Positions 12,633 to 15,092 of a DNA stretch of 27,048 bases are shown here, one piece after another; positions within the stretch are counted from its first letter, which is position 1, and every line of letters starts with the position of its first letter. A program made the translations under genes and the position numbers. The DNA lies in assembly GCA_014584455.1 (NCBI GenBank), contig JACTMV010000308.1, positions 1 through 27,048 of the forward strand, read 5' to 3'. The notes under the pieces are model-generated. The model ran no database searches, was not told the origin of the DNA, and was given only the letters and a program-made list of their open reading frames with translations. This stretch comes from Pseudomonadota bacterium (GTDB taxonomy: Bacteria > Myxococcota_A > Polyangia > Haliangiales > Haliangiaceae).

Positions 12633-15092
12633 ATGCGCGCCCCGCTGCTCGCCGCCGCCGCCGTCACCGCGGCGGTCGGCGCCCGTCCCGCCGCCGCCGA
12701 CGAGCTGACCAGCGCACTCGATCAGGGCGTGGTCGAGATCTCGCACGCGGTCGAGATCTCGGTCGCCGCCGGCGTCGCCCGCTACCGCGTGCGCCGCACC
12801 TTCGCCAACCCCGGCGCCGTCGCCGACGAGGCCCGGCTCGAGCTCGACCTGCCCTACGGCGCCGCCGCCACCGGCCTGCGCATCCGCGCCCGCCGGCAGT
12901 GGTTCGACGGCGACCTGCTGGAGGCGACCGCCGCCCTCGCGCGCTACCAGGAGCTCACCGGCCGCGGGCGGTGGGAGCCCAAGGATCCGGCGCTGCTGGC
13001 CTGGCGCTGGGCGGACAAGCTGGCGCTGCAGGTGTTCCCGGTGCTGCCCGGCGCCACCAGCACCGTCGAGTACACGCTGACCGTGCCCACCCGCTACAGC
13101 GGCGGCCGGATCTTCCTGTCGTACCCGCGGCCGCACACCGCCGGCAGCAACCTGGCCGAGCCCGTGCTGGTGGTGCGCCCGGCGTGGGCCGACGCCACGA
13201 CCCCGATGCGGCTCGACGGCGAGCGCGTCGCCACCGACACCCCGCTGGTGCTGCGGCCGCCGGCGGACCAGCCGTGGCTGGCGGCGATCGAGCGCGACGA
13301 GCACGCCAGCTACGCCGCGAGCGCGATCGAGGTCGCGGCCACGCCGGCGACCCGCCGCACCTTCGCCGCCGCCACCGTCACCCTCGAGCTCGAGCACACC
13401 TTCCGCGGCGACCTGCGGATCGCGCTGGTCACGCCGGCGGGCGCCGCGATCGAGCTCTTCGGCGGCGAGGGCGGCGGCGCCAACGACGTGCGCGGCCGCT
13501 TCCCGGTGACGCTCCCCGCCGGCACCACCGGCGCCGGCACCTGGCGGCTGGTGGTGTCGGATCACGCCGCGCTCGACACCGGCACGCTCGAGGGCTGGGC
13601 GCTCGAGCTCGGCGACGGCGCGGCGATCAAGGTCGCGGCCACCGACACCCCGGTGTTCGTGCCCGACGCCCCCGAGCGCCCGTCCGACGGCGGCGTCGCC
13701 GTCCTCGAGCTGGCGCCGCCGGCGATCCCCACCGTCGCCGCGCGGCTCGGCCGGGTCGTGGCCTCACCCGCCCACGCCTTCACCCGGCTCGAGCTCGACG
13801 TCGCCCCGGTGCTGCGGCCGCTGCCGCGACGACCGCAGGTGGTGTTCGCGATCGACGCCTCGCACTCGATGGGCCCGGCCGGGGTCGAGCTGCAGCTCGC
13901 GCTGGTGCGCGCCTACCTCGGCCACGTGCCCGACGCCGAGGTCGAGCTGGTGGTCTACCGGCGCGCCGCGAGCCGGCTGTTCGGCGCGTTCGTGCCGGCC
14001 CGCGAGCTCGACGCCCGGCTGGCCGCCGCCGTCGCCGCCGACCGGCTCGCGCCCGGCAACGGCAGCGCGCTCGACGACGCGGCGCGGGTCGCGGCCGCCG
14101 CGCTCGCGGGCCGCCCCGGCCCCCGCCGCGTCGTCCTGGTCTCCGACGCCCTGGTCCGCCCGCGCTGGGCCGACGCGCCGGCCCGGGCCGCCCTCGCCGC
14201 GCTCCCCGCCGACACCGTCGTCCACGTCGTCGTCGCCAGCCCGCGCCACGGCGGCGAGCCGGCGCTCGAGCGCGACGACGATCACGCGCTGGCCCCGCTC
14301 GCCCTCGCCCACCGCGGCATCCTCGCCGAGCTCGCGGGCGGCCGCGACCCCGGCAAGGCCCTGCCCCGGCTCACCCTCGGGCTGGTGCGCCCGGTGCAGC
14401 TCGACCACGTCCAGCTCCGCGGCCTCGATCGCGCGACGGGCCGCGCGATCGAGCTCACCCACGGCCGCCACGACCGGCCCGTGCCCTCGACCTTGCCCGA
14501 GGGCGCCGGCCTGCGCCTGGTCGTCGACCACGCCCACGCGCCCACCCGCGTCGAGCTCACCGCGATGATCTGGGGCGAGCGCTTCCGCCGCGTGATCGAC
14601 GCCGACGCCGCGTTCTCGCGCGCCGCCGCCGCCTGGGTGTTCTCCGAGGACGACCACGGCGCGCTGTCGCCCGCCGAGATGATGACGGTGGCGATGCAGG
14701 GGCGCGCGGTGTCGCCGGTGACGTCGTACCTGGCGATCGAGCCCGGGGTCCGACCGTCGACGATCGGGCTCGAGCGGGAGGGCCAGGGCCGGCTGGGCAG
14801 CCGGTCGGTCCGGGCGCCGCGCGTGGTCATGGGCACGGCCCGCACCCGCGCCCGCCCCGACCCCGCGCCGCTGCTCGCCGCCGGGGTGCGCGCCTGCGTC
14901 GACCGCCACCGGCCGGCCGCCGGCTGGCAGCTCACCCTCGAGCTCGACACCTCCTACGACGAGATCGTCGACGTGACCACGCCCGACGCGCGCGCGCCGC
15001 TGGCCGGCTGCCTGGTCGAGGCGGCGTGGGCGGCGCGGCTGACCCCGGCCTTCGACCTCGGGCGCGAGCGCTTCACCCTCACGCTCCCCTGA
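12633..15092 (+). CDS. Secreted VIT domain / proprotein-convertase P-domain / von Willebrand factor A (vWA) domain protein
   Basis: Signal-peptide-like N-terminus (MRAPLLAAAAVTAAVGARPAAA-DE). VIT pattern: YRVRRTFANPGAVADEARLELDLPYGAAATGLRIR...ALARYQEL...DPALLAW...LALQVFPVLPGATSTVEYTLTVP. P-domain pattern: LELEHTFRGDLRIALVTPAGAAIELF...GTWRLVVSDHAALDTGTLEGWALEL. vWA with a MIDAS-like motif: VVFAIDASHSMG...GNGSAL...VVLVSDA. Confidence 0.85.
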   Translation: MRAPLLAAAAVTAAVGARPAAADELTSALDQGVVEISHAVEISVAAGVARYRVRRTFANPGAVADEARLELDLPYGAAATGLRIRARRQWFDGDLLEATAALARYQELTGRGRWEPKDPALLAWRWADKLALQVFPVLPGATSTVEYTLTVPTRYSGGRIFLSYPRPHTAGSNLAEPVLVVRPAWADATTPMRLDGERVATDTPLVLRPPADQPWLAAIERDEHASYAASAIEVAATPATRRTFAAATVTLELEHTFRGDLRIALVTPAGAAIELFGGEGGGANDVRGRFPVTLPAGTTGAGTWRLVVSDHAALDTGTLEGWALELGDGAAIKVAATDTPVFVPDAPERPSDGGVAVLELAPPAIPTVAARLGRVVASPAHAFTRLELDVAPVLRPLPRRPQVVFAIDASHSMGPAGVELQLALVRAYLGHVPDAEVELVVYRRAASRLFGAFVPARELDARLAAAVAADRLAPGNGSALDDAARVAAAALAGRPGPRRVVLVSDALVRPRWADAPARAALAALPADTVVHVVVASPRHGGEPALERDDDHALAPLALAHRGILAELAGGRDPGKALPRLTLGLVRPVQLDHVQLRGLDRATGRAIELTHGRHDRPVPSTLPEGAGLRLVVDHAHAPTRVELTAMIWGERFRRVIDADAAFSRAAAAWVFSEDDHGALSPAEMMTVAMQGRAVSPVTSYLAIEPGVRPSTIGLEREGQGRLGSRSVRAPRVVMGTARTRARPDPAPLLAAGVRACVDRHRPAAGWQLTLELDTSYDEIVDVTTPDARAPLAGCLVEAAWAARLTPAFDLGRERFTLTLP

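Follow-up and report, generated by a model that had tools for sequence, protein, structure and literature searches.

A predicted secreted ITIH/integrin-like protein of Polyangia carries a proprotein convertase P-domain between its VIT and vWA domains

The 27,048-nucleotide window analyzed here (contig JACTMV010000308.1 of GenBank assembly GCA_014584455.1, from a bacterium placed by GTDB in the Haliangiaceae within the Polyangia) has a G+C content of ~76% and contains a complete gene for an 819-residue protein that combines a VIT domain, a proprotein convertase P-domain and a domain of the von Willebrand factor A type (vWA), hereafter VIT-P-vWA. The G+C content at third codon positions (GC3) is 0.98 in the frame of this open reading frame (ORF), which marks it as the coding frame, and two database proteins (P0001 and P0002) are 100% identical to the product. 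The protein was scanned against Pfam using gathering cutoffs, with sub-threshold matches inspected to E ≤ 1, and a full-length AlphaFold2 model was built on a 24-sequence family alignment (A1). The features of the gene are listed below, with model confidence expressed as the predicted local distance difference test score (pLDDT).

12633..15092, + strand: complete VIT-P-vWA gene from the ORF list; ATG start, 819 codons plus stop
12633..12698, + strand: predicted Sec signal peptide, residues 1–22 (MRAPLLAAAAVTAAVGARPAAA / cut / DE), read from the sequence; signal peptidase I type, lipobox Cys absent
12741..13073, + strand: VIT domain (PF08487), residues 37–147, N-terminal part of an inter-α-trypsin inhibitor heavy chain (ITIH)-like β-sandwich; Pfam 33.4 bits against a cutoff of 26.5, E 5.4e-08
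13371..13607, + strand: P-domain (P_proprotein, PF01483), residues 247–325; Pfam 54.1 bits against a cutoff of 21, E 1.7e-14
13836..14387, + strand: vWA domain, residues ~402–585 in the model; Pfam VWA_2 at residues 403–506, 30.8 bits against a cutoff of 27, E 4.7e-07
13854..13868, + strand: loop D408-A-S410-H-S412 of the MIDAS (metal ion-dependent adhesion site); the other ligands are S478 (in G-N-G-S) and D505
14712..14729, + strand: S-P-V-T-S-Y motif, residues 694–699, following the vWA/hybrid region; identified in alignment A1
14715..14846, + strand: Gly-rich linker, residues ~695–738, predicted to be disordered (pLDDT <50 at 695–738)
14865..15089, + strand: C-terminal α/β domain, residues 745–819 (75 residues); AlphaFold2 pLDDT 81–91

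The P_proprotein match covers profile positions 4–85 of 86, and the domain follows the VIT sandwich and precedes the strands that run into the vWA domain. An earlier annotation made without database searches (the sequence-only reading) had proposed that this ORF encodes VIT, P- and vWA domains, with a P-domain segment and no protease domain in the same chain; the segment it pointed to begins at residue 251. All three domains scored above their Pfam cutoffs and far beyond chance expectation, the domain scan assigned the segment to P_proprotein, and neither Peptidase_S8 nor any other catalytic domain was detected in the 819 residues by Pfam at E ≤ 1, bearing out each of these proposals. The jelly-roll fold anticipated for the segment was also obtained: modeling of residues 222–340 alone with AlphaFold2 yielded eight strands with a pLDDT of 88.5 and a predicted template modeling score (pTM) of 0.83, and the top 27 Foldseek matches in the PDB were all P-domains of furin, Kex2 or Aeromonas sobria ASP (E 3e-6 to 1e-4, 19–26% identity), with query-normalized template modeling scores (TMq) of 0.71–0.76 for the best superpositions. 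The predicted structure confirms the segment as a bona fide jelly-roll P-domain.

The full-length model has a mean pLDDT of 79.3 and a pTM of 0.77, with low confidence only at residues 1–21 (pLDDT <50), 109–125, 601–613 and 695–738. Its best whole-chain match in the PDB according to Foldseek was ITIH1 (6fpy, E 8.7e-22), and the alignment spans ~710 columns on a 600-residue target, as would be expected if the query carried a large insertion. Behind it ranked vWA proteins of bacteria and archaea, pilus-tip adhesins and integrin β headpieces. A search of the PDB with the family sequence profile matched ITIH4 (E 2e-6) and ITIH1, the N-termini of which align with the VIT region of the profile. The vWA region displays a Rossmann-like fold, and the DASHS sequence that the sequence-only reading had singled out as a MIDAS is indeed found at residue 408, with conserved MIDAS residues. 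In the HMMER alignment, S478 is paired with the threonine of the ITIH4 MIDAS sequence G-G-T, so that a serine occupies the threonine position. A VIT–hybrid–vWA architecture resembling that of integrin β subunits has been described for ITIH1 (PMC7170535), and the modeled VIT-P-vWA chain is an ITIH/integrin-β-like scaffold of this type with a P-domain inserted.

Beyond the vWA/hybrid region, V693 and P695–Y699 are invariant in A1 and S694 is nearly so. We take the resulting S-P-V-T-S-Y motif to be reminiscent of the "TP(L/F)TS" sequence located after the vWA domain in ITIH proteins. The Gly-rich linker is weakly conserved and occupies columns of variable length in A1. The C-terminal domain had no Pfam match at E ≤ 1, and it harbors the only two cysteines of the protein, C755 and C793.

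At the opposite end of the chain, the N-terminus consists of MR, a hydrophobic stretch and the sequence A-A-A/D. Residue conservation was counted over 66 full-length members of the family. At the predicted cleavage site, position −1 is alanine in 63 members and glycine in 3, whereas position −3 is always small (A/S/V/T/G) and position +1 is aspartate in all 66. From these features we infer that VIT-P-vWA is exported through the Sec pathway and cleaved by signal peptidase I.

The architecture is not confined to the window. A homolog search at E ≤ 1e-5 retrieved at least 411 full-length homologs. Among the 120 that were described from the matches listed, 119 are 784–849 residues long, with identities of 48–100%, and 119 carry both PF08487 and PF01483 in their precomputed Pfam annotation. 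These listed homologs come from Myxococcales, Kofleriaceae and Polyangiales, and they are named "proprotein convertase P-domain-containing protein" by NCBI and "subtilisin-like proprotein convertase family protein" by JGI. Using the family pattern PVTSY[VL]AxEP on GTDB contigs with one genome per species, we found 222 stretches that encode a relative and fetched 80 of them as a locus set; all 80 are labeled Myxococcota or bear an older deltaproteobacterial name. Intact orthologs are present in the cultured strains Nannocystis punicea FL3, N. pusilla Na p29 and Nannocystis sp. RBIL2; that of N. punicea is located on NZ_CP114040.1 within 8550097–8572490. Several genomes contain two paralogs (L001/L064, L005/L013, L004/L015 and L021/L025), which are ~47–56% identical to the window protein, so the family has undergone duplication within Polyangia.

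The order VIT, P-domain, vWA is conserved across the family. A P-domain hidden Markov model (HMM) matched the family ORF in 79 of the 80 loci. Only L078 gave no match; its copy is truncated by the contig and starts past the P-domain position, so the insertion is ancestral to the family. No sister group devoid of the P-domain was found in homolog listings that family members saturate, and even outliers of 34–40% identity still carry it. No NCBIfam model covers the family; the VIT region gave only far-sub-threshold matches to sortase and exosortase target families. Literature searches returned no description of the VIT-P-vWA architecture or of the family. The proposal that the combination is undescribed therefore stands as regards published accounts, of which we found none, and fails as regards rarity and annotation: the family is large, with its at least 411 homologs and 222 stretches, and has already been named automatically, so that the architecture is largely common and annotated, at the level of automatic domain naming only. 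It is otherwise uncharacterized.

Conservation over the 66 members is concentrated in identifiable sites. The MIDAS residues D408, S410, S478 and D505 are each present in all 66, and S412 is serine in 62 and threonine in 4. C755 and C793 are likewise found in 66/66. Within the P-domain, H255, W304 and W322 are invariant (66/66), and D260 and D310 are retained in 65/66. An RGD tripeptide is located inside the P-domain (residues 258–260, 13404..13412), and the corresponding site in relatives reads RSD, KSD, KGD or QSD. We rejected it as an integrin-type motif: it belongs to the generic P-domain sequence H-T-[YF]-x-[GS]-D-L and is not kept as RGD.

The sequence-only reading had treated a P-domain separated from a subtilase as an anomaly, a view that does not hold. 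We searched a 104-residue P-domain segment against 1.84 billion cluster representatives and obtained 4259 relatives at E ≤ 1e-3. Many of them are 2000–5000 residues long, with up to 12 matched stretches each, and giant proteins with 5–9 tandem P-domains plus fn3 occur among them. A Pfam scan of five top relatives revealed two with Peptidase_S8, two with fn3/P-domain arrays and one with lysyl oxidase and PKD domains. In a further 54 relatives of ≤900 residues, a sample biased to high-scoring, shorter proteins, Peptidase_S8 was detected in only 3; the others pair the P-domain with PKD, trypsin, papain, M4/M28/M36, transglutaminase, peroxidase, PAD, CBM or BNR, or contain no further domain. Subtilase-free P-domains are thus normal in bacteria, which shows that the prokaryotic P-domain is a freely shuffled extracellular β-sandwich.

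VIT-P-vWA is flanked by a divergent gene upstream and a convergent gene downstream, so we regard it as monocistronic. A scan for promoter and terminator consensus sequences around the gene returned nothing, as expected at 76% GC. The other features of the window are the following.

5167..7524, + strand: HEAT-repeat and cyclophilin fusion, 785 residues, upstream of the MVP homolog
7525..8871, + strand: MscS-type mechanosensitive channel gene, directly after the HEAT-cyclophilin gene
9000..11537, + strand: major vault protein (MVP) homolog, 845 residues; MVP_shoulder E 2.2e-25, Vault_3 E 8e-8, MVP in the PDB E 2.3e-18
11558..12565, − strand: Cys-rich predicted lipoprotein with lipobox LIAC and CxGxC-type repeats in a row; no Pfam match
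15098..15880, − strand: gene for a Peptidase_M50B-like membrane protein (E 2.3e-34), convergent with VIT-P-vWA, 5 bp between the stop codons
15964..~16560, − strand: second Cys-rich predicted lipoprotein; no Pfam match
21590..23776, − strand: DEAD-box helicase ORF with a very long C-terminal poly-Gly/Arg tail (GGGGGG...RRRRR)
24500..25645, − strand: protein with lipin/PITM-type LNS2 and PITM β-sandwich domains (E 1.4e-27 and 3.6e-10), families typical of eukaryotes

The real start of the divergent lipoprotein gene is at 12565, leaving a 67-bp gap to VIT-P-vWA. This pairing recurs in 6/80 loci, all in the closest clade, and the convergent M50B gene is likewise common to only 6/80. All-versus-all clustering of the flanking ORFs in the 80 loci revealed no family-wide conserved neighbor, and no S8-like gene was found in their 1.34 Mb of flanking sequence with two S8 queries (tblastn, E ≤ 1e-4), a search of limited sensitivity. 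The MVP homolog is positioned 1.1 kb upstream of VIT-P-vWA on the same strand; an earlier report noted MVP homologs among the Myxococcales (bioRxiv 10.1101/872010). The poly-Gly/Arg tail of the helicase is also present in orthologs at related loci (e.g., L002 10052..11701).

Side observations were made at the related loci as well. Family loci directly flanked by a kinase ORF are L008, L014, L017, L020, L027, L035, L037, L041, L044, L049, L062 and L066. Among the MVP loci described below (e.g., L152 1245..4352, + strand), Ser/Thr kinase ORFs occur in the flanks of 14, and an ORF of ~200 residues follows MVP in 7. In 3 MVP loci, an ORF starts at the MVP stop codon and its product begins MPRYEFSEGTSNKFWDIQL; judged by eye, this product is presumably WGR-domain-like.

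Taken together, we favor with moderate confidence a reading in which VIT-P-vWA is a Sec-exported, ITIH/integrin-β-like MIDAS binding protein that uses its P-domain as an accessory β-sandwich. In Polyangia-type myxobacteria it would be soluble and reside in the envelope or outside the cell. Once the signal peptide had been removed after A-x-A, the vWA MIDAS (D408, S410, S412, S478 and D505) would hold a divalent cation whose coordination would be completed, as in ITIH1 and integrins, by an acidic side chain from a protein ligand or from a second copy. The P-domain, inserted after the VIT sandwich and before the hybrid/vWA unit, would serve there as an extra binding surface or as a rigid spacer, and probably not as a protease regulator. 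The flexible Gly-rich linker would tether the small C-terminal domain, in which a disulfide is probable and which may act as an anchor or bring in a partner. Such a molecule may function in matrix or surface adhesion. The conservation of the MIDAS, the signal-peptidase site and the Cys pair in the 66 members supports this reading, as do the closest relatives of the P-domain, which are mostly non-subtilase secreted proteins, often with tandem P-domain copies next to fn3 or PKD, and the stand-alone context of the gene, for which the 80 loci showed neither a conserved neighbor nor, within 10 kb, an S8 gene.

ITIH1 offers a precedent, since it is secreted and its MIDAS mediates both cation-dependent self-association and C3 binding (PMC7170535). 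Some observations nevertheless weigh on the other side. ITIH1 also binds several ligands independently of its MIDAS (PMC7170535), and the MIDAS of VIT-P-vWA therefore need not be its main interface. No cell-surface anchor was recognized, as there is no lipobox, LPXTG or PEP-CTERM, so the term adhesin may be too specific; and export is deduced from sequence features alone.

Two alternatives connect the protein with proteolysis. Its JGI name suggests a true subtilisin-like proprotein convertase, and such annotation strings are attached to many homologs; against this, VIT, P-domain, vWA, linker and C-terminal domain together make up the entire chain in an ITIH1-like fold, and Peptidase_S8 is absent at E ≤ 1. 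The domain scan and the structure model refute a convertase identity, to which we give virtually no chance, and the word subtilisin-like evidently derives from the P-domain alone. The other alternative builds on ITIH4, which inhibits proteases via a cleavage-triggered, MIDAS-dependent complex (PMC7793589). By this precedent, VIT-P-vWA could be a protease trap, cleaved as a bait in its flexible region and holding the protease through the vWA MIDAS, with the orphan P-domain docking on a secreted subtilase as it does on the kexin/furin catalytic domain. An ITIH-like core, a disordered Gly-rich linker (695–738) and a bona fide P-domain would all suit such a mechanism, and some P-domain relatives are proteases of several classes. 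However, the family loci lack a conserved protease neighbor, the M50B gene being present in only 6, and a subtilase acting in trans was rejected because no S8-like gene was found in the flanks of the 80 loci by the two-query tblastn search of limited sensitivity. Moreover, conservation in the P-domain falls on the generic residues that determine its fold, most bacterial P-domain proteins are devoid of any protease, and the linker is poorly conserved, all of which makes a trap unlikely. We consider it quite unlikely that VIT-P-vWA is a bacterial counterpart of ITIH4, namely a "bait-and-hold" inhibitor whose P-domain docks in trans on secreted subtilases that the MIDAS then clamps; its targets may in that case come from prey, from competitors or from the cell itself, the latter being enzymes that lack a P-domain. 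If true, no earlier case would exist of a P-domain that acts beyond the chain it belongs to, nor of an ITIH-like inhibitor in a prokaryote.

The remaining alternatives stem from adjacent genes. VPARP/PARP4 contains a VIT and vWA pair. Because these domains are also a module of the vault PARP and an MVP gene is nearby, we tested a vault link, in which VIT-P-vWA would be a VPARP-like partner of a bacterial vault. The closest relatives, L001, L003, L004 and L005, share the arrangement of MVP and VIT-P-vWA, but these four, all of the closest clade, are the only family loci out of 80 with MVP within 10 kb; their VIT-P-vWA proteins are 62–67% identical and their MVPs 88–90%, so MVP is much more conserved. 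In the reverse test, 79 metagenomic MVP loci (L081–L159, 40–90% identity), of which 37 have ≥3 kb of downstream sequence, were searched by tblastn and with the A1 profile HMM. A family-profile match near MVP appeared in only 2/79, on the same contigs as L003 and L005, and no VIT/vWA-, PARP- or TEP1-like gene is conserved beside MVP in a restricted set of these loci. An oppositely oriented lipoprotein gene separates the two genes in the window, and Pfam detected no PARP or BRCT domain in VIT-P-vWA. Furthermore, MVP starts with MDERNQ... and has no signal peptide, whereas the VIT-P-vWA family has a conserved predicted one together with its invariant Cys pair, predicting different compartments. 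Clade-local synteny is all that remained after testing in both directions, and the vault link, which we hold to be highly improbable, was rejected.

A role as extracytoplasmic sensor or ligand-binding partner of a Ser/Thr kinase pathway draws on the kinase ORFs present in 29/80 loci, which directly flank the family gene (≤400 bp) in ~12, several of them upstream and co-directional, and on a database protein (P0099, 1133 residues) that reads as kinase, VIT and P-domain. Kinases are very abundant in myxobacterial genomes, and the window copy has no kinase neighbor. The adjoining kinases are orthologous only within small subclades and otherwise share 27–45% identity, which corresponds to generic kinase-domain similarity; a similar adjacency beside MVP genes (14 loci) suggests a background effect. 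The P0099 junction is R/S/P-rich, as is typical of frameshifted read-through, and this fusion is probably a frameshift artifact. Given the patchy adjacency and kinases that are not orthologous family-wide, the partnership was rejected as very unlikely.

If VIT-P-vWA is a MIDAS binding protein as proposed, Polyangia, predators that are social, glide and build a matrix, possess a conserved and secreted MIDAS protein of the integrin/ITIH-like kind that adds to the eukaryote-like extracellular adhesion modules of the phylum (cf. CglB/CglD). The family also illustrates cleanly that a P-domain can be a general building block outside the cell instead of a protease regulator. In practical terms, several hundred database entries bear a misleading JGI name, and the story of a bacterial vault with a VPARP-like partner, which the adjacent MVP gene invites, does not hold. 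The component domains are all well known and no long-standing open question is touched. Since bacterial P-domains are promiscuous and myxobacteria are rich in eukaryote-like extracellular modules, specialists will find little surprise in what is a fairly ordinary predicted secreted protein with an extra P-domain, neither a protease nor a partner of the nearby vault gene.

Compared with kexin/furin convertases (S8B) and Aeromonas sobria ASP, VIT-P-vWA shares the sequence and jelly-roll fold of the P-domain. In those enzymes, the P-domain is C-terminal to a subtilase domain with its Asp/His/Ser triad, whereas here a VIT sandwich precedes it and the P-domain is internal, between adhesion-type domains. 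Its closest P-domain relatives (28–46% identity) are bacterial multi-P-domain secreted proteins, which mostly lack S8 as well; none of those sampled has a VIT or vWA domain, whereas VIT-P-vWA has a single P-domain, always inserted at the same place of its ITIH-like scaffold. With VPARP/PARP4 it has in common the VIT and vWA pair, along with an MVP homolog nearby in the window, but it is devoid of the BRCT, PARP catalytic and MVP-interaction regions, it is predicted to be exported, and its linkage to MVP is not conserved.

Among secreted proteins with an N-terminal VIT domain, the sortase and exosortase targets TIGR03788 (marine sortase target) and TIGR04477 (XrtN VIT protein) are also comparable, although the NCBIfam scores of the VIT region were far below their cutoffs (24.5 against 551.65 and 17.6 against 250, respectively). 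Unlike these proteins, VIT-P-vWA ends in ...RERFTLTLP without LPXTG or PEP-CTERM plus a transmembrane segment, and we know of no P-domain insertion in either family. CglB and CglD are vWA-based, cation-dependent cell-surface adhesion proteins of a myxobacterium (bioRxiv 10.1101/2023.10.19.562135). Their likeness to VIT-P-vWA is one of functional analogy only, and CglD differs in being an outer-membrane lipoprotein with another domain set.

The most extensive resemblance is to ITIH1–4 (structures 6fpy and 9c4f), which are secreted and have an N-terminal VIT sandwich, a MIDAS-bearing vWA domain on hybrid-like strands, and a conserved motif after the vWA domain followed by a flexible region. ITIHs nevertheless lack a P-domain, share only 12–18% identity with the bacterial protein and have threonine at the MIDAS position where the latter has serine. 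They also differ at the C-terminus: the ITI_HC_C domain carries the site at which processing creates the ester link to chondroitin sulfate, whereas VIT-P-vWA has no ITI_HC_C match in Pfam at E ≤ 1 and terminates in its own unrelated two-Cys domain. VIT-P-vWA is therefore ITIH/integrin-like while standing outside the ITIH family.

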